From: a virus
Taxonomy: Duplodnaviria; Caudoviricetes
Length of the DNA: 64,000 bases
Strand: one strand, 5' to 3'
Virus record (IMG/VR): IMGVR_UViG_3300028888_000115
Location: 1 to 64,000 of that record
The first letter of the stretch is position 1. Each line of letters opens with the position of its first letter. The notes below the pieces were generated by a model that was not told the DNA's origin, made no database searches, and was given only the letters and a program-made list of their open reading frames with translations. Below are positions 1-64,000 of this stretch, piece by piece. Both the position numbers and the translations under genes were made by a program.

Positions 1-1287
1 TACGGTTTTTGTAATATCTTCTTCATCAGGCTGCGGTTTTTGAATAGTGCTGTTAATATAAGACTGCATGCGAGAGGCAGATTCAGACTTCATGCGGTCC
101 GTGGTGTGACCGTAGATGTCCAAAGTAAATGCTGCGCTGGCATGACCGAGATTTGACTGCAGAGTCTTGTAGTCATCTCCGTTTTGCAAAGAGATGGTCG
201 CAAACGTGTGCCGCAGATCATGAACCCGGCTCTCGGACATGTCGAAGTCCGCTGCCATCCTTTTGTAGTGCTTGTAGACGACTTTCGGATTTATCGGGGT
301 TCCAAGCTCCGTCGTGAAGATCAGTGCGGTCTTTCTCTCTTTATCGTTCTGGTATCCTTGCCACAGTTCTCCGGCTTCTTCTTTTTGCCGGTCCTGTTCG
401 TCATACCGGTCAGTAAACACATCGACCAAAAAGTCTGGCATGCTCAAATATCGGATCTCGTCATTTTTCAGAGGAGCGAAGGTATATCCACCATCCGCAA
501 CCGGACGCTTCTGCAACTGCTGGTAAAGCTTTATGGTCTTGGTCTTGTAATTGATACAGTCCCACGTCAGACCTATAGCTTCCGACTCCCGCATTCCTGT
601 GAACAAATAGACCAGATAGAGAGACCGGTATTTCTCTTTGTCCAGCGCTTCGAGGAACGCTTTGACCTGGTCGTCGGCCAATGGAATAAATTCATATCGA
701 TTGACACGCGGTTTTGTCGTTCTGGACGATGGATTGTATTTCAAGTAGTTGAGTCGGATCGCGTCATTCAGACATTTTGAGAGAACACAATGCACGTTCT
801 TAATAGATTTAGGGGACAAAGGCTCTTGTGTGACAATTGTTTCTTTCTTTTCTTGATCACGGCGTCGAACAGTTTTTCCGTTCTCTTCCAACTGATTATA
901 GAACAACTGAATTTTTTCTGTGGTCAGATCGGATAGCCTGACTTCTCCGAGAGCAGGCTTGATGTGCGTGTTCAATTGGGCCCTGTAGGTTTTCTTTGTC
1001 CGGTACTTGATATCACCGCAGTATTTTTCAATCCACAGGTCTGCCCACTCGGACACTGTCATCTTGGATGGGTCAAAGTATTCTTTCTTGCTGACTTGCA
1101 CGGAAACATCCTGCATTTTTTCTTTGACCTCTTTTTGCGTGTCGGCAGAAAAGGACTTCCTGATCGCTTTTCCTGTGATCGGATCATACCCGACAGTAAC
1201 CTTTGCTTCCCAATAAGTATATGTTTTTCCGTTCACAGTTCGCGTTCTTTTGCAGATTGTACCTTCATTATTTGCGCGTCTTTTCAT
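1..1287 (-). CDS. int: Tyrosine recombinase / phage integrase (3' end runs off window)
   Basis: Hand translation, not in ORF track: N-term MKRRANNEGTICKR...GYDPITGKAIRKSFSADTQKEV; C-term HDLRHTFAT...LGHASAAFTLDIYGH (HxxR, H, catalytic Y); start 1287 and C-term in same frame. Confidence 0.95.
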   Translation of the reverse strand, partial: MKRRANNEGTICKRTRTVNGKTYTYWEAKVTVGYDPITGKAIRKSFSADTQKEVKEKMQDVSVQVSKKEYFDPSKMTVSEWADLWIEKYCGDIKYRTKKTYRAQLNTHIKPALGEVRLSDLTTEKIQLFYNQLEENGKTVRRRDQEKKETIVTQEPLSPKSIKNVHCVLSKCLNDAIRLNYLKYNPSSRTTKPRVNRYEFIPLADDQVKAFLEALDKEKYRSLYLVYLFTGMRESEAIGLTWDCINYKTKTIKLYQQLQKRPVADGGYTFAPLKNDEIRYLSMPDFLVDVFTDRYDEQDRQKEEAGELWQGYQNDKERKTALIFTTELGTPINPKVVYKHYKRMAADFDMSESRVHDLRHTFATISLQNGDDYKTLQSNLGHASAAFTLDIYGHTTDRMKSESASRMQSYINSTIQKPQPDEEDITKTV

Positions 1288-27245: not shown

Positions 27246-27276
27246 ATGCTGTGCAGAATTCACAGAATTATACTCT

Positions 27277-27326
27277 AAAATTTGTACATATTGCGAATTG
27301 CAAATGTTCTAAAATTAGTGTATATT
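27277..27326 (+). promoter_or_regulatory. Conserved-box promoter P3
   Basis: AAAATTTGTACATATTGCGAA-TTGCAA-17bp-TATATT; CTAAAATTAG in spacer. Confidence 0.78.
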
Positions 27327-48467: not shown

Positions 48468-48552
48468 GTGCCTGTGGTGGAACTGGTATTCACATCCGAT
48501 TTAAGATCGGACGCCAAAAGGATTGAGAGTTCAAATCTCTCCGGGCACACCA
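48468..48552 (+). tRNA. tRNA-Leu(UAA)
   Basis: GTGCCTG/CGGGCAC stem, TCCGA-TTTAAGA-TCGGA, long V arm, CCA. Confidence 0.92.
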
Positions 48553-48555
48553 CGC

Positions 48556-48632
48556 GCTTCCGTGCTGCAACCGGTAGACAGGGGCGGCTCAAACCCGTCT
48601 GTTTCCGAGTTCGAATCTCGGCGGAAGCACCA
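48556..48632 (+). tRNA. tRNA-Leu(CAA) with short variable loop
   Basis: GCTTCCG/CGGAAGC, loop CTCAAAC, 5-nt V region, TTCGAAT, A73-CCA. Confidence 0.85.
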
Positions 48633-53814: not shown

Positions 53815-53843
53815 TTGACGTATGTCTAATTTTAGTGTATAAT
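53815..53843 (+). promoter_or_regulatory. sigmaA promoter with CTAATTTTAG palindrome in spacer
   Basis: TTGACG-17bp-TATAAT. Confidence 0.75.
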
Positions 53844-53969
53844 TCAAACATAACCGAAAAGCATTTGATGAAAGCCACACAGTTCACTCTTTGTTCATGA
53901 AAGTGACACCTTGCCGTGTTAAAATGACTATGATGGAGAAAGTGTAGATACACTCCGAGATAGTAATTG

Positions 53970-54004
53970 AACGCGGCTGAGAGAAGCCGCGTTTTCCTTT
54001 TTTT
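53970..54004 (+). terminator. Intrinsic terminator
   Basis: AACGCGGCT-GAGAGA-AGCCGCGTT followed by T run. Confidence 0.75.
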
Positions 54005-54016
54005 GAGGTGAGCGCG

Positions 54017-54715
54017 ATGATTGACAAAAGAGCGATCCGAAGGTATCATAAACGGGTAGATGCGAGACTTGCAGCGAGAGGCAAACGGTTCGACGGGAAC
54101 CGGTGGGAAGAAGACAAACACCCGAGAGCGAAGGACGGAAAGTTCGCCTCCGGGAACGGCGGACCATCAAGGCAGAGCGAAAGCAAGCCAGCGGCGAATG
54201 CGGCAGGCTCGGCAAAGCCAGTTGCAAAATCGAGGATCGAGCTTGACGGACCGTCCGGAAGCAAGGGCTTTGCTGACAAGTACATGGCGTCGCATCCCGA
54301 TGTCGCAAAGGAGGCCTCGAAATACAGGGGTGTCCTGAACAAGGTGAAAACCTTCAAGGCGGACGAGGACGGAACCTTCAGCGCAACAACCGGAGAAAGG
54401 CTTGACCTGACCGAAGGGTTCTGCGTTACCTTCCACCAAAACCTGAAGATCGGCGACGAGTACGGCGCTTATGATGACGACACGTATTCCAAGATGTGTG
54501 CCATTACGAAGCACGAACTCAAGTCCAGCGATGTCTACATCGGCTATTACGGGAATCCGGAAGTTTCGTTCAATTGCCCGGATGAGAAAACGGCGATGGA
54601 CTTTGCGATCAAGCATAACCAGAAGTCGATTTACAACTGCAAGACCGGAAAGACCATTCTGAATAAGCACTACAATCCGGAGACAAATCCGATAGAGGGC
54701 GATAACGATGGCTAA
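54017..54715 (+). CDS. Arg-tag protein 1 (WEEDKHPRAKDGKF motif, unknown payload)
   Basis: IRRYHKRVDARLAARGKRFD N-terminus. Confidence 0.75.
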   Translation: MIDKRAIRRYHKRVDARLAARGKRFDGNRWEEDKHPRAKDGKFASGNGGPSRQSESKPAANAAGSAKPVAKSRIELDGPSGSKGFADKYMASHPDVAKEASKYRGVLNKVKTFKADEDGTFSATTGERLDLTEGFCVTFHQNLKIGDEYGAYDDDTYSKMCAITKHELKSSDVYIGYYGNPEVSFNCPDEKTAMDFAIKHNQKSIYNCKTGKTILNKHYNPETNPIEGDNDG

Positions 54716-55007
54716 GATCGATATTGGAAAACTGAATGAATCCGTTTCATCCTTTGTGGAAAACCCGCATTGGAAGAAGTATCTGGAAGAAGCTCCGTCC
54801 GGCGAGTGCAAGGCGTACATCAAACTGAACTTCTATCTCAGCGACATCGAATCAGATGGCCCGGAGAAAGACGCGGTGATCGACAAGATGAACGCCTACG
54901 AGGATAAGCTTGGCCTTGCAGACTGGAAGCACCTGCTGAAATACGCAGGGAACAATCCCTTCGCCGGTAAGTGCAAGAAGCGGATTGCAGAGCTCTCAGA
55001 ACAATAA
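54708..55007 (+). CDS. Small protein coupled to Arg-tag protein 1 (possible immunity)
   Basis: 8-nt overlap; function inferred from context only. Confidence 0.65.
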   Translation: MAKIDIGKLNESVSSFVENPHWKKYLEEAPSGECKAYIKLNFYLSDIESDGPEKDAVIDKMNAYEDKLGLADWKHLLKYAGNNPFAGKCKKRIAELSEQ

Positions 55008-55056
55008 ACGATACGGGTTGGTAAACCCCGGCATAAAAACCGAAAGCTTCCAATAT

Positions 55057-55132
55057 TGCGGCGTGGTAGCAGTGGTAGCTCGCTGCCCTCATAAGGCAGA
55101 GGTCGTTGGTTCGAATCCAACCGCCGTAACCA
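55057..55132 (+). tRNA. tRNA-Met/Ile2(CAU)
   Basis: CTGCC-CTCATAA-GGCAG; lacks initiator GGG/CCC stem; CCA. Confidence 0.85.
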
Positions 55133-55134
55133 AA

Positions 55135-55275
55135 GGTCGGGTAGCTCCCGAATGATCTCAGTAGCTTGTCGGTGTGCCTGAGAGAGAATAACAAAGGCCT
55201 TTCTGAAAACTCCTTGCGCGTGAACGGTCGTGCGCAGGCTGGGGCGCGAGTGAGATAATCTAAGAAGGGAAACCG
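55135..55275 (+). ncRNA. Candidate RNA carrying module shared with 57022
   Basis: TCGGG/CCCGA hairpin, TCTCAG/CTGAGA helix, GAGAATA. Confidence 0.45.
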
Positions 55276-55283
55276 CACAATAC

Positions 55284-55360
55284 AGCCCTGTGGTGCAGTT
55301 GGTGAACACGTCGGCCTGTCACGCCGAAGATCGCGGGTTCAAGTCCCGTCAGGGTTGCCA
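55284..55360 (+). tRNA. tRNA-Asp(GUC)
   Basis: TCGGC-CTGTCAC-GCCGA; G73-CCA. Confidence 0.92.
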
Positions 55361-55364
55361 ATAC

Positions 55365-55660
55365 GTCTCATCTGAGCGTGGCACAACACAGCCTGTTGAC
55401 GCAAGGGCTGCACGGGCGAAATCAGATGCCGGGGCGGGGTTACATCCCACGGAGCGTCACCGTGCTCGCAGAAACGGACTCGGTATGTCCCAAACCATCG
55501 TGAGAGTATACCTTGGATGGCACAAAGCGTTTAGAAGTGCCCGATCAGCCTTCTGCGCGTATCCCGGACGGTCCGGGACCAAGGACTGTGAAGAGCGTGT
55601 TCGATTCCGCGAACTCGAAGGTTCGACTCCTGACAGTGCTGGTGCAATATCAGTCCTTTT
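55365..55660 (+). ncRNA. Candidate ~300-nt structured RNA with kissing loops
   Basis: Helices 55369-75/55422-28, 55467-73/55551-57, 55581-88/55651-58; loop-loop TGACGC/GCGTCA. Confidence 0.55.
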
Positions 55661-55666
55661 TCATAC

Positions 55667-55755
55667 GCGGAATGATGCCGTCCGGCGACGGCTGCGGCCT
55701 TGAAAACCGTGGGTAGCAGAGATGCTATGGGGGTCGGCACCTCCGTTCCGCGCCA
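55667..55755 (+). tRNA. tRNA-Ser(UGA), 8/4 fold
   Basis: 8-bp acceptor GCGGAATG/CGTTCCGC, 4-bp T stem, T loop GTCGGCA, 6-bp D stem, long V arm. Confidence 0.85.
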
Positions 55756-55758
55756 GAT

Positions 55759-55848
55759 GCAGTGTTGCCAGAGCGGTAATGGGCCCGCTTGGAAAGCGGA
55801 AGCCAGGTTGAGAAGCCTGCGAAGGTTCGATCCCTTCACGCTGCGCCA
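55759..55848 (+). tRNA. tRNA-Ser(GGA)
   Basis: Canonical 7/5 fold, loop TTGGAAA, long V arm, G73-CCA. Confidence 0.9.
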
Positions 55849-55851
55849 GAT

Positions 55852-55941
55852 GCTTCGTTATGCCGGACGGCTCCGGTCCTTGCCTCGAAAGCAGAGGGTG
55901 CCCGATGAGGGCATGGGGGTCGGCACCTCAGCGAAGCGCCA
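55852..55941 (+). tRNA. tRNA-Ser(CGA), 8/4 fold
   Basis: 8-bp acceptor GCTTCGTT/AGCGAAGC, 4-bp T stem, T loop GTCGGCA, 6-bp D stem. Confidence 0.85.
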
Positions 55942-55944
55942 CAT

Positions 55945-56019
55945 AGAGCTGTCGTCTAAGGGTAAGACACGAGGCTTTGACCCTCGTATGTGAAAGTTCG
56001 AGTCTTTCCGGCTCCGCCA
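55945..56019 (+). tRNA. tRNA-Gln(UUG)
   Basis: CGAGG-CTTTGAC-CCTCG; A1:C72 mismatch; CCA. Confidence 0.88.
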
Positions 56020-56023
56020 GTAT

Positions 56024-56109
56024 GGAAGAGTGGCCGAGTTGGTCAATGGCGGCGGACTGTAAATCCGTTGGCACTGCCTACACAGGTTCGAATCCTGTCT
56101 CTTCCACCA
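56024..56109 (+). tRNA. tRNA-Tyr(GUA)
   Basis: GGAAGAG/CTCTTCC; CTGTAAA loop; CCA. Confidence 0.93.
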
Positions 56110-56112
56110 CAA

Positions 56113-56189
56113 GGTCCCATCGACTAACAGGCAAGGTCACCAGCCTTTCACGCTGGCAATGCTCGGTTCAAATCCGGCTGGGATCACCA
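56113..56189 (+). tRNA. tRNA-Glu(UUC)
   Basis: CCAGC-CTTTCAC-GCTGG; CCA. Confidence 0.9.
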
Positions 56190-56192
56190 CAT

Positions 56193-56268
56193 GGGGTCGT
56201 AGCTCAGCTGGGAGAGCGCCTGCCTTGCAAGCAGGAGGCAGAGGGTCCGAGCCCCTCCGATTCCACCA
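56193..56268 (+). tRNA. tRNA-Ala(UGC)
   Basis: G3:U70; CTTGCAA loop; T loop TCCGAGC; CCA. Confidence 0.9.
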
Positions 56269-56271
56269 CAA

Positions 56272-56348
56272 GGTCTCTTCGTCTAAAAGGATAGGACGCA
56301 AGCCTCTCAAGCTTGTAATGCTGAGTTCAAGTCTCGCAGAGATCACCA
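56272..56348 (+). tRNA. tRNA-Glu(CUC)
   Basis: CAAGC-CTCTCAA-GCTTG; CCA. Confidence 0.9.
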
Positions 56349-56468
56349 GCACATCTGACCGCCGAGGACGCGTACTCGGGAGATACCCGCAGATAGACGG
56401 AGAAGAAGCGGGGCTGAGCGGCACGGTGCAGACCCGACACCCGCAGGGTCCATGCCGCAAGCGGGTAT
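56349..56468 (+). ncRNA. Candidate small structured RNA between tRNAs
   Basis: ATCTG/CAGAT, CCGAG/CTCGG, GCGGCA/TGCCGC, GACCC/GGGTC helices. Confidence 0.35.
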
Positions 56469-56470
56469 AT

Positions 56471-56547
56471 GGCTCATTAGCTCAGTTGGTTAGAGCGCAT
56501 GGCTGTTAACCATGATGTCGAAAGTTCGAGTCTTTCATGAGCCTCCA
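56471..56547 (+). tRNA. tRNA-Asn(GUU)
   Basis: CATGG-CTGTTAA-CCATG; followed by CCACCA. Confidence 0.92.
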
Positions 56548-56550
56548 CCA

Positions 56551-56840
56551 AGTGGCTGTGCTGCAGTGTTTGCATCGAAGCACCTCCTTTCGTAAATCCA
56601 CACGTCTGCTGGCCGTGCTTGCGCTACGGTTGTTGGATGAAACAAAGCAGAGCCGTGAACCGGAACAACGTGCGTACTGGGAACGCACGCCGGGAAATCG
56701 GCACAATACAGAACTGTTGGCTTTGATTCCTGACTTGTACCGAAGGCTTCGGTCCCACCGAGGCGATTGATGTAGGTAGCATCTGGGGCTCATGAAAGCC
56801 GCAGGCCCGATTAAAGCTCCGCGAGACGGGCTATCGGGCA
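56551..56840 (+). ncRNA. Candidate ~290-nt structured RNA with anti-SD segment
   Basis: GTGCT/AGCAC, CGTGCGT/ACGCACG, ACCGAA/TTCGGT, GCCCGAT/ATCGGGC; CACCTCCTTT at 56581. Confidence 0.45.
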
Positions 56841-56844
56841 ATAC

Positions 56845-56919
56845 AGGTTGGTGGTGTAATGGCAACATGCCGGTCTCCAAAACCGTGCGATCAGGGTTCG
56901 AGTCCTTGCCTTCCTGCCA
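56845..56919 (+). tRNA. tRNA-Trp(CCA)
   Basis: CTCCAAA loop; two U:U mismatches in acceptor stem; CCA. Confidence 0.85.
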
Positions 56920-56930
56920 AAAAAGAATAC

Positions 56931-57019
56931 GGAGCGTTGGCCGAGTTGGTAAGGCACCGGATTGCTAATCCGTGGTTAGGGGTAACTCTACGAATGTTCG
57001 AGTCATTCACGTTCCGCCA
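56931..57019 (+). tRNA. tRNA-Ser(GCU)
   Basis: TTGCTAA loop, long V arm, G73-CCA. Confidence 0.9.
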
Positions 57020-57021
57020 TT

Positions 57022-57486
57022 TCCGGGTAGCTGCCGGATGATGTCAGAGCAGATGCACCAGAGGCCTGACAGAGAATATGAATGGTAGACCGACCAAAGC
57101 GGGGCGGAAGCCCTGCACAAGGCCTATGGCGGTACTACAAGTGAGGGCAACGTCGAAGGAACGCGACTGATTTGTGCGGGATGGCAAACCCACAAAAAAG
57201 AACAAACACGCCCCGCTGCGGGTGACAGCACCAAAGGAAGCTGAGACGTCCGGTTTCCGGGTCTATCACTTAAAGCGGGGAATAGGCCGAATAAAACAGG
57301 AACTTGGCCGTAGGGCAGTGAAAGTGCGAATGCGTTGTAGCTGGCTGATGATGGCAGACAGAGCAAACGGCTGTAACGACAGGACGTGAGAATTAGCCGT
57401 CTACTGAAAGGGAAAGAAATCCCATCAAAGCTGTTTGCTCACAATTCTATATCGGATACCGTCATGCCGAAAGGTGTGGCGGTATC
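57022..57486 (+). ncRNA. Candidate large ornate ncRNA (~460 nt)
   Basis: Nested 9-bp helices 57083-91/57260-68, 57098-106/57209-17, 57112-20/57172-80; pseudoknot 57121-27/57281-87; 12-bp helix 57360-71/57428-39. Confidence 0.65.
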
Positions 57487-57509
57487 TTTGCTTTGGGGAG
57501 AGAGCAGAA

Positions 57510-57758
57510 ATGAGTAAGTCGAAGGATATTCGCACGCTCTGCGCCTCCTGCAGAGCAGAATACGAGGAAGCCGGATTTGAACTGATCAAAGTCTGGGTGA
57601 AAAACAAAGAGGAATGTGACTGGTGCCGCGTGAGACTGGGGTGGACCTATGAAATACGCGGAAAGAGACAACATCTTCGTAGCTCAGATGGCAAGAGCGC
57701 TGAATACTCCCAATTCAGGGGTCGCGAGTTCAAGTCTCGCCGAAGATGGACGCGATAG
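57510..57758 (+). CDS. Small Zn-binding protein reading through a tRNA-like gene
   Basis: RTLCASC..EECDWC..WTYEI; GGGGAG RBS. Confidence 0.6.
   Translation: MSKSKDIRTLCASCRAEYEEAGFELIKVWVKNKEECDWCRVRLGWTYEIRGKRQHLRSSDGKSAEYSQFRGREFKSRRRWTR
57673..57748 (+). tRNA. Deviant tRNA-Gly-like gene (9-nt anticodon loop, no CCA)
   Basis: ATCTTCG/CGAAGAT, GCTC/GAGC D stem, CTGAA-TACTCCCAA-TTCAG, GCGAG-TTCAAGT-CTCGC. Confidence 0.65.
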
Positions 57759-57896
57759 GCCGCAGTTTGCGGATTTTCTGCGGCGCTTTCATGTTAGTCG
57801 CTCCTCCGCCCCACGATTGCTGGCTGCTGCTTGGGAAGTAACAGTCGCGGGCAAACAAGCAATGCCGGTGGAAATCCGGCCTATTGACGAACCTAC

Positions 57897-57925
57897 AGCC
57901 TGCGGAAACGCGGGCTTTTTCTTTT
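57897..57925 (+). terminator. Terminator-like hairpin before ParB genes
   Basis: AGCCTGCG-GAAA-CGCGGGCT followed by TTTTCTTTT. Confidence 0.65.
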
Positions 57926-57934
57926 GGAGGAACT

Positions 57935-58408
57935 ATGGAACTGATTCAGGTCCCACTTGACCAACTGAAACCTTATCAAAACAACCCAAGATACAACGAT
58001 GACGCGATTGACGCGGTCGTCGAAAGCATTGATCAGGTCGGGTACATCACGCCGATTATCGTGGATGAAAACTGGCAGATCCTTGCCGGTCATTCCAGAT
58101 GGAAGTCGTTGAACGAACTGGGTGAGGACAAAATTGACGTCATCCTCGTCCCGGGACTGACCGAAGAGCAGAAGCGTAAATTCCGACTGCTGGACAACAA
58201 GACGGCGGAGATTGCGTCGTGGGATCTCGATAAGCTCCAAGAGGAACTGGAGATGGTCGATTTCGGCGGCTACGATTTCTGGTCAAAGGAACTGGAACAG
58301 ATGGCCGACAACCTGATCGCCGACAAGCCGAAGAAGAAAGTGATCATCTGCCCGAAGTGCGGAAAAGTTGTGCAGGGCTTGGTGGATATGGACCAATACG
58401 ACGAATGA
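57935..58408 (+). CDS. ParB/Srx N-terminal domain protein 1
   Basis: LKPYQNNPRYND..SIDQVGYITPIIVD..ILAGHSR..FRLLDNKTAE; CPKC tail. Confidence 0.88.
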   Translation: MELIQVPLDQLKPYQNNPRYNDDAIDAVVESIDQVGYITPIIVDENWQILAGHSRWKSLNELGEDKIDVILVPGLTEEQKRKFRLLDNKTAEIASWDLDKLQEELEMVDFGGYDFWSKELEQMADNLIADKPKKKVIICPKCGKVVQGLVDMDQYDE

Positions 58409-58409
58409 T

Positions 58410-58868
58410 ATGGAAAAACATCTTGTAACTATGAAACTGAGCGAGATTATTCCCTACAAGAATAATCCTCGTAAAAATAAAAGCGCGGTCAAGACCGTTG
58501 CGGAGAGCATTCGACAGACCGGATACAACAATCCGATTATTGTAGATGAGAACAAAGTGATTCTGGCCGGACACACAAGGCGTCTGAGCCTGATTCAGCA
58601 GGGAGTAGAAGAGGTGCAGGTGCTTCAGGTGCTTGGACTTTCTGAGACTGCCAAGAAAAAGTTCCGACTTCTGGACAACAAGGTCGGAGAGTTCGCGTCG
58701 TGGGACTACGTTGCTCTGACAGAGGAACTTGCAACGCTGGATTTTGGCGGTCTGGCTCTGGACTGGGGCATTGAGTTCAACATGGACGACGCGGAGCCGA
58801 AGGAAAAGAAAAAGAAGGAAAAGCCGGAGTATGTCTGCCCGGAGTGCGGTTTCCACTTCAAGGCCTGA
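58410..58868 (+). CDS. ParB/Srx N-terminal domain protein 2
   Basis: IIPYKNNPRKN..GYNNPIIVD..ILAGHTR..FRLLDNKVGE; CPEC tail. Confidence 0.88.
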   Translation: MEKHLVTMKLSEIIPYKNNPRKNKSAVKTVAESIRQTGYNNPIIVDENKVILAGHTRRLSLIQQGVEEVQVLQVLGLSETAKKKFRLLDNKVGEFASWDYVALTEELATLDFGGLALDWGIEFNMDDAEPKEKKKKEKPEYVCPECGFHFKA

Positions 58869-58877
58869 GGTCGAAAG

Positions 58878-59330
58878 ATGGTAGAACTGACACCGAGCTG
58901 CATGGACAGAAATCTGTTCATGAGAATGGCAAAGGATTATGTGGATACCCTCAGCCAATATGATCACGAAATCAAGTGGGATGAACTGGCTTGGGAACAA
59001 GGGATGTGGTACTCACAGTTTATTGTAGAGGACCGGACTGTGCAGGGATTCATACAGACTGAAATCGTCCCGTTCAACGTTTTTCCGAGTGCGTTTTATA
59101 TTGCTGAGTTCTATGTTGTTCCTGAGGCAAGGCACCGGCACATCGGTACGGAGGCCGTAAAGGCCGCTACTCAGTCGTGGAGCGGGGATGCGTTTTTATA
59201 TATCCTCGACAAAAATGTTCCGGCACGCTTCTTCTGGACCGATGTAGAGGCGGAACTTGGATGGAAGCGAATAGAAAGACCGGAGATCCGAAAAGAATCC
59301 GGATGTGAGCTCAGAGTGTACAAAACCTGA
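58878..59330 (+). CDS. GNAT-like acetyltransferase
   Basis: IAEFYVVPEARHRHIGT..ILDKNVPARFFW. Confidence 0.75.
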   Translation: MVELTPSCMDRNLFMRMAKDYVDTLSQYDHEIKWDELAWEQGMWYSQFIVEDRTVQGFIQTEIVPFNVFPSAFYIAEFYVVPEARHRHIGTEAVKAATQSWSGDAFLYILDKNVPARFFWTDVEAELGWKRIERPEIRKESGCELRVYKT

Positions 59331-59344
59331 AAGGATGAGAAAGC

Positions 59345-60478
59345 GTGGATGACATTGTAAAGAAATACCGCATGCGCCGAGATGCAAGGATTGCGGCCAA
59401 AAAAGCCCACGCGGACGACCAGTGGATCACAATGCGAGGAACGCATGTCCTGATAGACGACGGCGGGCAGGTATCAAAGGGGCCTGAAAAGCTGAAAAAC
59501 GTCGTGAAGCAGGGCGGCGGGTACAAGTCAAAAGCTGACCGGAAGTACGGAAGCAGCGACAAATACAGCAAGGCGATGAATAACGGCTGGAATGTGAAAC
59601 CAGCCGTGGAACAGACAAAAAGAGAACGAAGACCGCTTGCAGACATACACAAAGAGTTTGAAGACAACAGGTACCGTCTGGAAGACTCTTTGAAGAAACG
59701 CGACAAGGCCAAAGAAAACTATGAGATGAGCAATGGCAATTACGATTTGTACATGGATGATCCGGGAACGTCTGAAGAGTTCAAAGAGATGTTCCGGAAA
59801 GACCTTGCCATGACTCAGAAAAAATATCATGAAGCAAAGAGCGAAGTAGACCGGCTTTCGGAGAAAGACAGAGCCTTGAAAAAAGAACTGTCTGAAGAGC
59901 GCGACGCGGTCAAGAAAGAAGACCAAGCGGCAATCAGGTCCGGTCCTGTGGCATACGTCAGGTCTGAAAAAGTCGTTACGGCGATTCGCGGCAACGAGAG
60001 CTTGATCAGAAAGAAAGATTACGAAAAAGGAGCTTGCGTGGACAAAAACGGCAGACTCTTGTTTGAGGCAACTGACGGCAAAGCGAGTCAGATCGACCTT
60101 GAAGCGTATAAGGACAAACTGAAAGACACCGTGTTCACGCATAACCATCCCCGGGGTTCAACACTCAGCGTGGATGACGTCAGCTGTGCCGTCGCTCATG
60201 GAATGGCGGAAGTGAGGGCTTGTCATCGAGACGGTGCATACTCTCTTGTCAGGCAGTATTCGCTGGATGGCGAAAAGCCTGCAAATTACATGGACTTCGC
60301 TTGGGACTATCAGGAAAGCGTCGCAAAGTATGACCGCGAAGTTATCGATCCAATCTGGAGGCGTGGACCGCAGGTACAGGAAACTGCGGACAGGTGCAAT
60401 AAAATGTACGACGATTACCGCCGTCTGTGGCTGGAACTGAATTCGAAGAAATACGGATGGATTTATTCGGAGGAGTAG
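59345..60478 (+). CDS. Arg-tag protein 2 with C-terminal JAB/MPN-like domain
   Basis: VKKYRMRRDARIAAK N-terminus; YEKGACVD..G...FTHNHPRGSTLSVDD. Confidence 0.75.
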   Translation: MDDIVKKYRMRRDARIAAKKAHADDQWITMRGTHVLIDDGGQVSKGPEKLKNVVKQGGGYKSKADRKYGSSDKYSKAMNNGWNVKPAVEQTKRERRPLADIHKEFEDNRYRLEDSLKKRDKAKENYEMSNGNYDLYMDDPGTSEEFKEMFRKDLAMTQKKYHEAKSEVDRLSEKDRALKKELSEERDAVKKEDQAAIRSGPVAYVRSEKVVTAIRGNESLIRKKDYEKGACVDKNGRLLFEATDGKASQIDLEAYKDKLKDTVFTHNHPRGSTLSVDDVSCAVAHGMAEVRACHRDGAYSLVRQYSLDGEKPANYMDFAWDYQESVAKYDREVIDPIWRRGPQVQETADRCNKMYDDYRRLWLELNSKKYGWIYSEE

Positions 60479-60482
60479 GATC

Positions 60483-60620
60483 ATGAAATACACAAGGGAA
60501 GAACTGCAAAAAGGGGTCACGGTACTTGATAAGTCCGAGAAAGACTGCATTTATCGGGTCCCGACTCCTGAGAAGAAAAAACAACCGGAGAAGAAGACGG
60601 GCCGACCGGAAAGGACGTGA
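60483..60620 (+). CDS. Small basic protein
   Basis: GGAG RBS; 45 aa hand-translated. Confidence 0.45.
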   Translation: MKYTREELQKGVTVLDKSEKDCIYRVPTPEKKKQPEKKTGRPERT

Positions 60621-60624
60621 CAGC

Positions 60625-60801
60625 ATGGGACAGGCGAAACCGAAGATGGACGGAATTAAGGACAAATACCTCAATATCATCGAGCATGTCTACGGCATTC
60701 CGAGAATCCTTTTGGAAGACATGACCTATGACAAGATCGATGACTATGTCTACGACGAGCTGCAAAGGCGCGAAAGAGAAAAAGAAGCCGCCAAGAAGTG
60801 A
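60625..60801 (+). CDS. Small hypothetical protein
   Basis: AAGGA RBS; 58 aa. Confidence 0.5.
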   Translation: MGQAKPKMDGIKDKYLNIIEHVYGIPRILLEDMTYDKIDDYVYDELQRREREKEAAKK

Positions 60802-60903
60802 GGATGACTTGAGATGGATGAGCTTATGAACCTCATGAGAAAACATTGGAAGAAGATCCTCGGGGAAGAGGAGACGGAAAACGAGGAGTAAGAAAGAAAC
60901 GGC

Positions 60904-61560
60904 ATGAACATCGTAAAATCTGCAATTGTCATCGAAGACGGTCCGGAATACGACAAACTGCTCCAGAAGATCGAGCGGATCGGACGGACCTGCTACAAGA
61001 GCGAAGACCAAATCGGCATTGGGAGTGCCGAGAAATTTGTCAACCGCCTGATTGCGTCCGGTCACGAGTCGGTCATCGAACACGGGAGCATCACGGTGAG
61101 AGTAATCTGTGATCGTGGAGTCAGTCACGAGATTGTCCGGCACCGGCTGGCGAGCTACAGCCAAGAGAGTTCGAGATACTGCAACTACACGGCGGATAAG
61201 TTCGGAAACGAGATTACCGTCATTGATATAGCAACAGGTTTTCAATATGACCTGTCAAGTGAAAAAGACATCAAGAAATACCAGATCTGGACCCAAGCAA
61301 TGCTGGACGCGGAGAAGCACTACTTTGAGATGATCGAAGCCGGTGCAAAGCCGGAAGAGGCAAGAAGCGTGCTTCCGAACTCCACAAAGACAGAGATCGT
61401 CATGACGATGAATCTCAGAGAGTGGAGACACTACTTCCGGATGAGATGCAGCAGCAGGGCCCATCCGCAGATTATCGAAGTCAGCAAAATGATTCTCAAG
61501 GTCTTTGCGGAACGCTATCCTGCATTCTTTAGAGACCTTGCGCAGGAATACTCCGCCTGA
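60904..61560 (+). CDS. thyX: Flavin-dependent thymidylate synthase
   Basis: GHESVIEH; RGVSHEIVRHRLASYSQESSRY; ARSVLPNS; AHPQI. Confidence 0.95.
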   Translation: MNIVKSAIVIEDGPEYDKLLQKIERIGRTCYKSEDQIGIGSAEKFVNRLIASGHESVIEHGSITVRVICDRGVSHEIVRHRLASYSQESSRYCNYTADKFGNEITVIDIATGFQYDLSSEKDIKKYQIWTQAMLDAEKHYFEMIEAGAKPEEARSVLPNSTKTEIVMTMNLREWRHYFRMRCSSRAHPQIIEVSKMILKVFAERYPAFFRDLAQEYSA

Positions 61561-61584
61561 ATTGGCGTCAGCAGATACAATGAG

Positions 61585-62787
61585 GTGACAAAGATGGAGA
61601 GACATGTAGCAGCCTACAAGAGGCGCAGAGCACAAAGGCTCTGTGAGCGATACGGATTCAGATATGACTCGTTGAATTTAGATTCAGGACTTGGCTGGCT
61701 GTTTGGTCTTGCCACGGATCTTGGAATCAAGACAAAGGGTATGAAGATTCCTGAAATCTTCAAGGCTGTGAATGAGAAGCGTGCCCAGAAAGGGCTTGAA
61801 CCTGTTGGACACAAGGGAAATGTTTCCGGAAAGAAGGGTTCATTCAAGCAGACAAGCCGGAAGGGACCGGAGGTCAATCAGTCCCTCGTGTCCAATGCGA
61901 AGGAGGAAGCCAAAAAGAATATGGCGACCTCCTACAAAACTGCGAGCGGAGCTAATTTCCCGAAGCCAAAGGCTGGCGCGAAGTTTGACAACAGTGTTAT
62001 GTCCGGCGTTGAAAAGAGCGCAAAGGATCTCGGAAAAGAAAAGGAATTTGACGACATCGTGAAGAGCCTGAAACCGACCGATTATGTCTATATGAAAGAC
62101 CCCGTGACGGGTGATCAGGTTGCTTCCGTTCCTGGCTTGGCTCAGCGTTTCGATAAGACAATGACCGGGCGGTCAGAAGAGTGCCAGAGGATCTACGACC
62201 AGAAAATCAAGAAGGGCGCACAGATCTCGAAAGACATGATTGATGCAGTCAACGGAATCGGGTGCCGTCTGTCCGGACTGGAGAACTGCTTCAAGGGCGG
62301 CGACTCCACGTCAAGGAAGATTTCTACCAAACGCAGCGAGGCAGAAGCAAGAGGAAAAGAAACCAAGACGGACGAAGGATACACTGCTGGTTTTGGTGAT
62401 ATCATCCGATTCACGGCCTTGTGTGACCACGATGACATCGCAGAAACGGTGACAAAGCTGGAAAGCGCTATGCAGAAGAAGGGCTATGAGCTCAACGAAA
62501 GAGACAATAAGTGGGTTACCGGAGACGGCAGCTACAAAGGCGTGCATGTTGAATTCATTTCTCCGACAGGCGAGCGTTTTGAGGTTCAGGTACATTCTAC
62601 TGTCGCTCTGGCATTCAAAAACAAGGGTCACAGATACTACGACAATGCACGCGTGGAAGACGTGAGCACTGCGAATGGCAAGAAGCGCCACGATGCCGCC
62701 ATTGAGAAATGCAAGAGCATCTGGAAGACTTGCCCGATCCCCAAAGGAATTGAGGACCTGAAACCGATCCCCAAAAAGAAACGGTAG
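61585..62787 (+). CDS. Arg-tag protein 3 with RelA/SpoT-like synthetase (toxSAS/Apk2-like) domain
   Basis: VAAYKRRRAQRLCER N-terminus; GDIIRFT..YKGVHVEFISPTGERFEVQVHS. Confidence 0.8.
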   Translation: MTKMERHVAAYKRRRAQRLCERYGFRYDSLNLDSGLGWLFGLATDLGIKTKGMKIPEIFKAVNEKRAQKGLEPVGHKGNVSGKKGSFKQTSRKGPEVNQSLVSNAKEEAKKNMATSYKTASGANFPKPKAGAKFDNSVMSGVEKSAKDLGKEKEFDDIVKSLKPTDYVYMKDPVTGDQVASVPGLAQRFDKTMTGRSEECQRIYDQKIKKGAQISKDMIDAVNGIGCRLSGLENCFKGGDSTSRKISTKRSEAEARGKETKTDEGYTAGFGDIIRFTALCDHDDIAETVTKLESAMQKKGYELNERDNKWVTGDGSYKGVHVEFISPTGERFEVQVHSTVALAFKNKGHRYYDNARVEDVSTANGKKRHDAAIEKCKSIWKTCPIPKGIEDLKPIPKKKR

Positions 62788-62801
62788 ATCGGATATTATC
62801 C

Positions 62802-62830
62802 TTGACAATGTACTAAAATTAGTGTATAAT
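62802..62830 (+). promoter_or_regulatory. Internal promoter for immunity plus hydrolase genes
   Basis: Perfect TTGACA-17bp-TATAAT; TACTAAAATTAGTG in spacer. Confidence 0.85.
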
Positions 62831-62851
62831 GACCATGGAGGTGAGCGGGCT

Positions 62852-63100
62852 TTGAGTGTGAGAAAAGAAGTGTTCTATTATCAGGATCGCGATGACGATT
62901 CAGGGATTGCTCGTTCGGTTCGTGATGAGACCGGGACCGACTATCAGTTCTGGAACTATGAGAAGCACGACTGGGTATCTCCGAAAGATTCGATTGCGAT
63001 GGACTTCTGCCATGACTACGACAACACGCGCGTGATCAGTGAGGAGGAGGCAAAAAAGGCAATCGAAGAGGCTGAAAAGGAGATTGAAAGCCGAAAGTAA
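62852..63100 (+). CDS. Putative immunity protein (IapK-like)
   Basis: GGAGGTG RBS plus TTG; VFYY..W..VISEEEAKKAI; between toxSAS and SAH. Confidence 0.65.
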   Translation: MSVRKEVFYYQDRDDDSGIARSVRDETGTDYQFWNYEKHDWVSPKDSIAMDFCHDYDNTRVISEEEAKKAIEEAEKEIESRK

Positions 63101-63112
63101 GGGGATGGTAGC

Positions 63113-63532
63113 TTGATTTCGATGGTCTGGCAGGCAGAGGCCTTTGCGAAAGAAAGGCACTTTGGACAGTTTGACCGCGCCGGAGTTCCGTATATCGAGC
63201 ATCCGCGTGCGGTTGCGGCGAAGGTGGACACGGATACGGAAAAGGTTGTCGCGTTCCTGCACGACACGGTGGAGGACACCAACACAACGCTGGATGAGAT
63301 CCGGAACAAGTTTGGCACTGAGGTCGCGGACGCGGTTGAATGCCTGACTCACAAAAAGGGTGTTCCGTATATGGAATACGTCAAGGGAATCAAAACGAAC
63401 GACCTTGCGCGGAGGGTGAAACTGGCGGACCTGAGCCACAACATGGATCTGAGCCGTCTGCCGAAGGTGACCGATGCAGACCTGAAGCGCGTGGAGAAAT
63501 ATAAGGCTGCTTACGACTTTCTGGTCGAGTAA
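63113..63532 (+). CDS. Small alarmone hydrolase (HD domain, Mesh1/Aph1-like)
   Basis: HFGQFDRAGVPYIEHP..VAFLHDTVEDT..VKLADLSHN. Confidence 0.9.
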   Translation: MISMVWQAEAFAKERHFGQFDRAGVPYIEHPRAVAAKVDTDTEKVVAFLHDTVEDTNTTLDEIRNKFGTEVADAVECLTHKKGVPYMEYVKGIKTNDLARRVKLADLSHNMDLSRLPKVTDADLKRVEKYKAAYDFLVE

Positions 63533-63574
63533 AGGCCGACCGGGCGTTCGTTCGAGATAGATAACGAGATTATA

Positions 63575-63610
63575 AGGACGACGCTCTGAGGGGTGCCGTC
63601 CTATATTTTT
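63575..63610 (+). terminator. Intrinsic terminator-like hairpin
   Basis: AGGACG/CGTCCT stem followed by ATATTTTT. Confidence 0.55.
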
Positions 63611-63627
63611 GCATAGGACGGTGCGAG

Positions 63628-64000
63628 ATGGAAAAGAGCCGAGCGAAAGCGATTGCGGACTACCGCAGGAGAAGAATACAACGGCTGAGAGCCAGGTTCG
63701 ACGATGATAACGACGAGAACAATGCCCCGGCACCGGCTGGCGGGCATGGAAATACAAAACTTCCGTTCGGACTTTGCCGGAGGGAAGGCATCAAGGTAGA
63801 CCCGACATGGACCCCGAAGGATGCGTGGAATGCTCTGGAAGGCAAGGGATACTCTGCCAAGGAAGCCTATAAAGAACTGAAGGAAACCGGCAAGGTGGCT
63901 CCGAGAGCACCGCAGAAACCGGTGAGGACTCCTGCTGAGATCAAGAAGATGGGCAAGTCCGTTTCCGACCTGAAGAAGGCTATGAAGAAGCGGGATAAGC
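63628..64000 (+). CDS. Arg-tag protein 4 (partial, runs off window)
   Basis: Hand translation: MEKSRAKAIADYRRRRIQRLRARFDDD...PFGLCRREGI..TPKDAWNAL. Confidence 0.75.
   Translation, partial: MEKSRAKAIADYRRRRIQRLRARFDDDNDENNAPAPAGGHGNTKLPFGLCRREGIKVDPTWTPKDAWNALEGKGYSAKEAYKELKETGKVAPRAPQKPVRTPAEIKKMGKSVSDLKKAMKKRDK

Follow-up and report, generated by a model that had tools for sequence, protein, structure and literature searches.

A short arginine-rich N-terminal helix shared by predicted effector proteins of Brigit-like phages

Introduction

Polymorphic toxins fused to the MuF domain are encoded in the head module of temperate phages, where a constant N-terminus is joined to a variable C-terminal toxin and followed by immunity genes (PMC5576092, PMC12226406, PMC11699363). 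In phage T4, a short N-terminal peptide, the capsid targeting sequence (CTS), is common to the otherwise unrelated proteins IPI-III and Alt, which are made with the head, and is removed by the prohead protease gp21 (PMC3012670). Polyvalent proteins of phages and conjugative elements, which combine two or more effector domains in one polypeptide, are a third point of comparison; their packaging and injection are likewise predicted (Iyer et al. 2017, PMC5512222). Here we describe a family of proteins that share an arginine-rich N-terminal peptide, hereafter the tag, in front of unrelated C-terminal domains. The family was found in IMG/VR record IMGVR_UViG_3300028888_000115, a linear viral contig of 75,457 bp with a completeness of ~80% (CheckV), the first 64,000 bases of which are the window analysed. 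The closest named phage is Faecalibacterium phage FP_Brigit (portal identity 54%). We read the shared peptide, with moderate confidence, as a trafficking tag used by a family of polymorphic effectors in Brigit-like temperate phages of gut Clostridia. Six tagged genes, named A to F, were found on the contig:

54017..54715, plus strand: gene A (232 aa), tag, HPR-x4-GKF adaptor and payload of no recognised family
59345..60478, plus strand: gene B (377 aa), tag, W-I-T-xx-G-T-H-V adaptor, coiled coil and HNHP-x6-S-xx-D payload
61585..62787, plus strand: gene C (400 aa), tag, variant of the three-helix adaptor and small-alarmone-synthetase payload
63628..64000, continuing to contig position 65343, plus strand: gene D (571 aa, first 124 in the window), tag, three-helix adaptor, coiled coil and payload
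contig 67,860-69,422, plus strand: gene E, two tandem tags and zincin HExxH payload, between TerL and portal
contig 69,494-73,225 (L001:9494-13225), plus strand: gene F (1,243 aa), tagged, between TerL and portal

The initial annotation of the window had compared four of these genes with MuF-fused toxins. The likeness extends to homology: the payloads of C, D and E hit 'head morphogenesis' PHROGs in the C-terminal stretch outside MuF, which is the toxin end of MuF fusions. Payload types common to both systems include alarmone synthetases accompanied by an HD hydrolase and a small open reading frame (ORF), glutamine deamidase-like domains and ADP-ribosyltransferases (ARTs). The trio of small alarmone synthetase (SAS), protein-type immunity and hydrolase is the arrangement of the MuF toxin Apk2 and its Bacteroidales relatives (PMC12226406, PMC11699363). 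The constant part, however, is an arginine helix of ~17 residues with a short adaptor, compared to a MuF domain of ~300 residues, and a genome carries up to 8 tagged genes rather than one fusion. The same annotation had called the system MuF-independent, which is not supported. PF04233 is absent from the contig (E<=1) and, in Pfam searches, from proteins A-F; near-identical relatives carry a free MuF protein among their cargo genes, so the effectors are better described as MuF-unfused than as MuF-independent.

Like the T4 CTS, the tag is a short N-terminal peptide common to otherwise unrelated proteins, and it may share a cleavage motif with the major capsid protein (MCP) and the scaffold. The two peptides have no sequence relationship, and the putative site here follows an Asp (R-Φ-D) instead of L/I-x-E. 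The tag is known from genes alone, in a siphovirus-type temperate phage of Clostridia. With a 1,451-aa polyvalent protein, which relatives encode a few genes downstream, the tagged proteins share the same adaptors (the HGNTK three-helix module, W-x-T-xx-G-x-H-V and HPR-x4-G-x-F), zincin and ART domains, and the prediction that they are packaged and injected. That protein begins with a different helical head and strings several payloads together, whereas A-E start with the arginine helix and hold one payload each, short of the two or more effectors that characterise polyvalent proteins; besides the 1,451-aa protein, such multiples are found in some two-unit tagged proteins elsewhere.

Conservation and structure of the tag

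The four arginine-rich peptides initially noted in the window are real, and form the N-termini of plus-strand ORFs starting at 54017, 59345, 61585 and 63628. Within these ORFs the tags were delimited as follows:

54032..54094, plus strand: tag of A, terminating KRFD
59351..59416, plus strand: tag of B, terminating AHAD
61603..61668, plus strand: tag of C, terminating FRYD
63646..63702, plus strand: tag of D, terminating ARFD and followed by an acidic run

The pattern [IV]xxY[KR]xRRxxRL occurs seven times in six ORFs of the contig, against 0.04 occurrences expected from shuffled six-frame translations, and all seven copies lie on the plus strand inside the first ~50 residues. Three of them (contig positions 67878, 67944 and 69509) are outside the window and are therefore independent of the pattern's design. 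Identical residues are written with different codons from copy to copy, arginine being encoded by CGA, AGG, CGC, AGA, CGG and CGT, and conservation therefore acts at the protein level. An RNA or DNA element at the gene starts, or a recent duplication, is ruled out by this variation.

To define the tag more precisely, 134 unique examples were gathered from the contig, 42 portal-anchored loci and 120 database homologues. Their consensus reads D-[A/S]-[V/I]-x-x-[Y/F]-[R/K]-x-R-R-x-x-R-L-x-A-R-[F/M/L]-D-[A/D], followed by an acidic run. Counted from the aromatic residue, arginine is present at +3 and +4 in 97% of tags each, at +7 in 100% and at +11 in 82%, while Asp is found at +13 in 76 of the 134. 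The arginines at +3, +7 and +11 form a ladder along one face of a 17-residue helix in which 6-7 residues are basic. They are near-invariant across proteins that are 20-45% identical in the tag and share nothing elsewhere. The tag is often doubled, in which case the first copy terminates in [R/H]-[Y/F/L]-D-S-V. In an AlphaFold2 (AF2) model based on a 79-sequence alignment, both tags of E are helices with a predicted local distance difference test score (pLDDT) of ~76; a disordered acidic and Gly-rich linker follows, and then the three-helix module at pLDDT 77-81.

Each unit is thus built of an arginine-ladder helix that usually terminates in R-[F/L/M/Y]-D, a short adaptor, a K/A/P-rich linker or coiled coil, and a swappable enzyme. 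This supports the earlier description of one short basic N-terminal tag combined with exchangeable C-terminal effector domains and travelling partner genes. Neither the tag nor the adaptor modules are covered by the Pfam or PHROGs profile libraries. We found no published description of the tag in the literature searched (MuF toxins, capsid targeting sequences, encapsidation signals and DUF2213), and it is most likely undescribed so far.

Distribution in phages and proximity to head genes

We searched 1.84 billion 50%-identity clusters with a hidden Markov model (HMM) of the tag only, comprising 32 positions (E<=0.001). The search returned at least 108 cluster representatives; this number is a lower bound because the tag model carries few bits. 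Nearly all matches start within residue 60, and the internal ones correspond to second tag-adaptor-payload units in proteins of 600-1,180 aa.

Two records, G001 (146 kb) and G002 (83 kb), are 96-99% identical to the contig over shared genes and extend beyond its end. They encode, in order, a portal-NUDIX fusion, a 273-aa protein, a tagged 260-aa protein, MuF, a tagged 544-aa protein, a polyvalent protein, a DUF2213 protein, a decoration-like protein, the MCP and tail genes. From the gene order of these near-identical relatives, the complete phage therefore has 8 tagged proteins. The MuF protein is free-standing (313 aa; PF04233, 1.7e-16) and sits amid the cargo genes. The polyvalent protein is the 1,451-aa protein mentioned above; it combines two zincin motifs with an ART-like R-S-E signature and carries the same adaptors at internal positions. 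The DUF2213 protein (523 aa) has an extremely acidic C-terminal half and the PHROG label 'head maturation protease'. The C-terminus of the 273-aa protein, a separate gene in G001, matches the tail of the portal fusion of FP_Brigit. The terminase and portal genes that frame this region are:

contig, beyond the window: small-terminase candidate
contig 66,428-67,834, beyond the window: TerL
contig, beyond the window: portal gene, cut by the contig end at residue 556
L004:10001-12418 (G001): portal fused to NUDIX (805 aa), with a long Pro/Glu-rich linker
L050:13923-16409 (FP_Brigit): portal fusion, in the order portal, NUDIX, HPR module and nuclease-like last domain

Stopping inside the portal gene, the contig does not reach the genes for scaffold, MuF and capsid.

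In the complete record of G001, all 10 tag matches lie at 81.9-107.3 kb, around the portal. The whole records of four further relatives (G002-G005) show the same ~25-kb band around terminase and portal, except for a single weak match in G005, at its far end. The tag is thus enriched near the head module, with nearly all matches in the five whole relatives falling into this band, and the lack of enrichment that the initial annotation had named as a refuting outcome was not observed. A distant tagged protein, P0122, is likewise encoded between TerL (63% identical) and portal in the same phage clade, and the tag therefore appears specific to Brigit-like phages. No viral locus was found for another distant tagged protein, P0129. 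Megablast of the 52-64 kb region and tblastn of the N-terminus of E against 50,697 phage records gave tRNA matches or none; at this sensitivity, the tag region appears to be carried by no named phage.

These positions bear on whether the proteins enter the virion at all. They could instead remain unpackaged and act as lysis-released polymorphic toxins, in bacterial competition or on the animal host, with the tag serving uptake or binding of a helper. The toxin-plus-immunity layout is typical of interbacterial toxins, and Arg-rich peptides are able to cross membranes. The prophage MuF-ART toxin Bxa is reported to act after release from the cell (PMC11699363). Against this, the tag keeps to the vicinity of terminase and portal wherever whole records were scanned, the adaptors are shared with portal fusions and polyvalent proteins, an internal scaffold protein contains a look-alike of the tag, and the tagged proteins have no signal peptide or receptor-binding domain. 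We therefore regard lysis release as a rather unlikely explanation.

Adaptor modules

The tag is followed by one of a few alternative adaptors, namely a three-helix module, W-[I/V/K]-T-xx-G-x-H-V-x-[I/V]-D, H-P-R-x4-G-K-F or a Gly-rich peptide. The three-helix module is used by D, E and F and, in a diverged version, by C; B has the second type and A the third, and the peptide G-G-P-G-S-G-N-x-G-H-x-G-R-P-G is found elsewhere. Within the window the adaptors are located at:

54113..54154, plus strand: HPRxxDGKF adaptor of A
59420..59485, plus strand: WITxxGTHVxIDDxG adaptor of B
61687..61779, plus strand: diverged three-helix adaptor of C (GWLFGL...GI...)
63739..63897, plus strand: three-helix adaptor of D (GGHGNTK-PFGLC...WTPKDAW)

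The three-helix module spans ~45 residues, with H, G, N, P, G, L, G, I, W, P, A, W, A, L and G invariant in 79 sequences (GHGNTK-PFGL...GI...W-P-AW-AL-G). The segment FGL...GI...w.A, which had been noticed as common to C and D, was confirmed as a portion of it. A DNA-binding fold of the HeH/SAP type could not be confirmed for this module, as a VIA search of 48,161 chains returned only generic helices (Z <=3.6).

The fold of this module matters for the possibility that the Arg-rich helix, with or without it, is a nucleic-acid-binding element, tethering the enzymes either to the phage genome (for co-ejection or protection of DNA ends) or to host RNA or DNA. The arginine ladder at i, i+4 and i+8, with 6-7 of 17 residues basic, would suit such a role. 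The three-helix module and the repeats of F also give weak to moderate matches to the HeH-type Ish1 (E 0.013; 2e-7 for one tagged protein), and in phage 80alpha the MuF-family ejection protein gp44 is reported to bind the ends of the genome (PMC7290940). Yet the long acidic run directly after the helix would oppose DNA binding, the fold search produced no DNA-binding fold, and the same helix occurs in a scaffold/protease protein with no known DNA role. Moreover, zincin and deamidase payloads need no nucleic-acid targeting. A nucleic-acid tether is consequently unlikely in our view, although it is the first of the alternatives to a trafficking tag that we would consider.

The WITxxGTHV adaptor also occurs inside the polyvalent protein of the relatives, and the HPR module is present in the portal fusion of FP_Brigit, between NUDIX and the last domain. 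The adaptors thus seem to be shared more widely than the tag, with polyvalent and fusion proteins. The presence of the same modules inside these fusions could mean that the tag is a neutral relic, a linker devoid of function left over when genes for polyvalent or portal-fused proteins split. Near-invariant arginines at 20-45% tag identity, a strictly N-terminal position and the retention of as many as 8 copies in a genome, written with different codons, make this highly improbable.

Just upstream of the polyvalent gene lies a 69-aa ORF (L004:17485-17694; ...K-K-P-Y-Y-T-W-S-G-K-I-V-D-K), which is fused N-terminally to the tagged or adaptor-bearing proteins P0070, P0072, P0118 and P0120 of other phages. 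By these fusions, the ORF is a predicted additional, alternative head module.

Payloads and partner genes

The initial annotation had assigned three payload types. The alarmone synthetase of C and the unknown family of A stand, whereas the JAB/MPN-like assignment of B could not be verified. The genes encoded next to these three payloads, together with their control elements, are:

53815..53843, plus strand: promoter-like TTGACG-17-TATAAT with a CTAA-NN-TTAG palindrome in the spacer, upstream of A
53969..54004, plus strand: terminator-like hairpin and T-run, between the promoter-like site and A
54708..55007, plus strand: 99-aa ORF, candidate immunity protein and partner of A, overlapping A by 8 nt
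60483..60620, plus strand: 45-aa ORF, candidate partner of B, 5 nt after B; 47% identical copy in L005
62802..62830, plus strand: perfect TTGACA-17-TATAAT promoter with a CTAA-AA-TTAG box, before the partner genes of C
62852..63100, plus strand: 82-aa ORF with a TTG start after GGAGGTG, candidate protein-type immunity for C
63113..63532, plus strand: HD-domain hydrolase, candidate alarmone-hydrolase immunity (PF13328 HD_4 3e-9; phrog_990 3e-55)

The payload of C is, from its profile matches, an alarmone-synthetase fold. Residues 192-395 match SaSAS (PDB 8vx3, E 1.3e-7), and the payload also matches the C-terminal part of phrog_7625 (4.7e-16). The combination of SAS payload, one or more small ORFs and HD hydrolase is linked in four other lineages as well (L008, L010, L011 and L041), the cassette lying on differing sides of the portal.

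The only basis for the JAB/MPN-like assignment of B was its H-N-H-P-x6-S-xx-D motif, which is one residue short of the JAMM signature H-x-H-x7-S-xx-D. Profile and sequence searches gave no Pfam or PDB match for this payload, and AF2 modelled it with pLDDT<50 from 7 sequences.

For A, searches with the payload recovered no recognisable family. The gene starts at ATG 54017, preceded by the ribosome-binding site GAGGTG; the listed GTG at 54008 is upstream of that site. Directly before A, a strong hairpin lies ~125 nt after a near-consensus promoter (53815-54016). The layout resembles the lambda PR'-tR' leader, which is read through by antitermination; alternatively, it may produce a short regulatory RNA.

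Small coupled genes had been proposed to follow all three complete tagged genes. This applies to A, with its 8-nt overlap, and to B, where the partner begins 5 nt after the stop, and does not apply to C, whose partner genes have their own promoter. A spacer box, CTAA-WW-TTAGTG abutting TATAAT, occurs at four sites against 0 expected: before gene A (53826-53843), before the antidote genes of C (62813-62830), and as a divergent pair near 27.3 kb (27309-27326, plus strand; 27267-27284, minus strand). These sites look like one repressor-controlled regulon that would include the immunity genes.

Protein D matches phrog_7104, and a language model gave, as a lead only, a candidate papain-like payload of the Gln_amidase/SpvD group; payloads of the D type are trailed by a DUF7675 ORF. 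Protein E matches phrog_7153 and the C-terminal part of phrog_324, corresponding to the zincin. Protein F is kept in every tag-rich lineage, always in the TerL-portal interval, where it is trailed by a 120-aa ORF. It contains ~7-8 divergent repeats of ~90 residues, whose signature is weakly HeH/Ish1-like, and a phrog_8314 domain at the C-terminus; it may act as a structural hub and not as a toxin.

Among 98 other tagged proteins, Pfam recognised Zeta_toxin (5), AAA_33 (3), ATLF-type zincin (3), ADPrib_exo_Tox (2), Gln_amidase, RelA_SpoT and DUF4258, and most payloads had no Pfam family. The 151 tagged proteins comprise ~12 payload clusters. Partner genes travel with their payloads in the SAS, D-type and F cases, and their predicted role is neutralisation.

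Scaffold look-alike helix and possible capsid loading

Four sister records lack tagged cargo (G006, G007, G008 and FP_Brigit), and the tag HMM was built without their proteins. Each whole record contains a single match to it, a helix directly after the DUF2213 domain (E 3.8e-7 to 2.4e-4) of the form A-I-x-x-[Y/F]-K-x-R-R-A-E-R. The scaffolding protein of phage P22 carries a coat-binding C-terminal helix-turn-helix, whose likeness to the tag is a lead only. A homologue of the DUF2213 protein is gp24 of Pseudomonas phage Pa193 (E 9e-13), a scaffolding protein that was found to remain inside the capsid by cryo-electron microscopy and liquid chromatography-mass spectrometry (PMC11456595). With the look-alike in the DUF2213 protein and gp24 inside the capsid, the tag resembles a piece of a procapsid-interior protein. 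In the P22 scaffold helix and the Pa193 gp24 fragment, short charged helices attach a protein electrostatically to the inside of the capsid, as the tag might. An alignment of the tag-like scaffold helix to the solved Pa193 gp24 (PDB 9B40) was dropped as unreliable in that region, and no alignment ties the tag to the solved fragment.

A mechanism consistent with these likenesses can be proposed. The tagged units would be made late, alongside the head proteins, and their basic helix, acting as a mimic of one in the internal scaffold/protease protein, would dock them on the inner side of the procapsid during assembly. Candidate docking partners are the very acidic scaffold, the coat interior, the portal and the free MuF protein. 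The leader might then be cut at R-Φ-D, and the enzymes would be ejected with the DNA into the next host, while separately encoded partner proteins would neutralise them in the producing or lysogenic cell. In its full form, the proposal is that the arginine-ladder helix is a portable, scaffold-mimicking capsid-loading signal, cut at R-Φ-D, that would equip Brigit-like phages of gut Clostridia with up to eight or more interchangeable toxins and counter-defence enzymes in the absence of a MuF fusion, as a second, independent answer to the problem solved by the T4 CTS. We advance this full form tentatively, and with less confidence than the trafficking role itself.

Cleavage of the tag at R-Φ-D is a hypothesis suggested by the recurrence of the motif, and candidate cutting enzymes are the DUF2213 domain and the tagged zincin E. 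R-Φ-D terminates 60% of tags, and the Asp motif is absent nearby in 18 of 134. Residues ~31-36 of the MCP read x-R-F-D-[S/G/D] and continue with acidic residues in 14 distinct orthologues down to 53% identity. The polyvalent protein has G-R-F-D-A-D-E-E at a domain junction that lacks the Arg helix, and the scaffold protein has R-[M/L]-D-G. A stricter six-residue version of the motif is rare and gives four matches in the six frames of the 75-kb contig.

Such sites raise the possibility that the tag region is mainly a processing site. R-Φ-D and the acidic run would be cut by DUF2213, zincin E or the polyvalent zincins, the helix would merely present the site, and loading would fall to the adaptors or MuF. 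In addition to its place at the tag ends, the polyvalent junction and the MCP N-terminus, the motif divides tandem tags as [RH]-[YFL]-D-S-V, second units in long proteins retain the whole tag, and polyvalent zincin domains were proposed to autoprocess (Iyer et al., PMC5512222). The arginine ladder, however, is more conserved than R-Φ-D (100% versus 60%), and the tags with no nearby Asp motif, together with weak enrichment statistics, speak against processing as the main function. We judge it improbable.

Several observations weigh against capsid loading by scaffold mimicry. In the tag-rich lineage, the scaffold helix has lost its arginines (G001, L048:4804-6375; D-K-A-L-E-E-Y-D-K-K-Y-G), so that tags there do not simply imitate the scaffold encoded alongside them. 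The PHROG label is the sole ground for taking DUF2213 as a protease. R[FLM]D[ASDG] is only mildly enriched outside the tags, with 3 matches in ~4,000 aa of non-tag head protein, compared to a background of ~0.25 per 1,000 aa; as a statistically enriched cleavage motif it was kept as a lead only. The tag is also retained within some fusion proteins, which would hardly seem to need a loading signal. For scaffold, MuF and capsid, the genes are known from the 96-99% identical relatives and not from the contig itself. Genes A-C sit 4-12 kb upstream of the terminase, not strictly within the head block, and are intermixed with tRNA, ParB-like, GNAT and ThyX genes. Finally, every family member is known here from genes and sequence alone, from which we infer packaging, docking partner, cleavage and injection.

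If the tag does load capsids, it would explain the large and rapidly reshuffled injected arsenal of an abundant gut phage clade, consisting of alarmone synthetases, ADP-ribosyltransferases, Zeta-type kinases, peptidases and deamidases. The polymorphic-toxin concept would then widen from one MuF fusion per phage to multi-gene sets, and the 17-residue handle could be tested for loading arbitrary cargo into phage particles. It would also provide a simple sequence rule for recognising virion-delivered effectors in metagenomes, which is now possible only for MuF and portal fusions.

Genomic setting

All genes of the contig besides an integrase at its left end lie on the plus strand, and they include RecT, methyltransferases, a helicase and a sigma-like regulator. 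Two further features mark the left end and the boundary of the late region:

1-1287, minus strand: tyrosine integrase, at the left contig end
55057-57749: 12 tRNA genes in an array that separates tagged gene A from the remaining late region

Interleaved with the tagged genes are several genes that lack the tag, namely two neighbouring ParB-N-like genes (window 57884-58868), a GNAT acetyltransferase (58878-59330) and ThyX (60904-61560). In addition to the array, two tRNA-Leu genes are located at 48468-48632.

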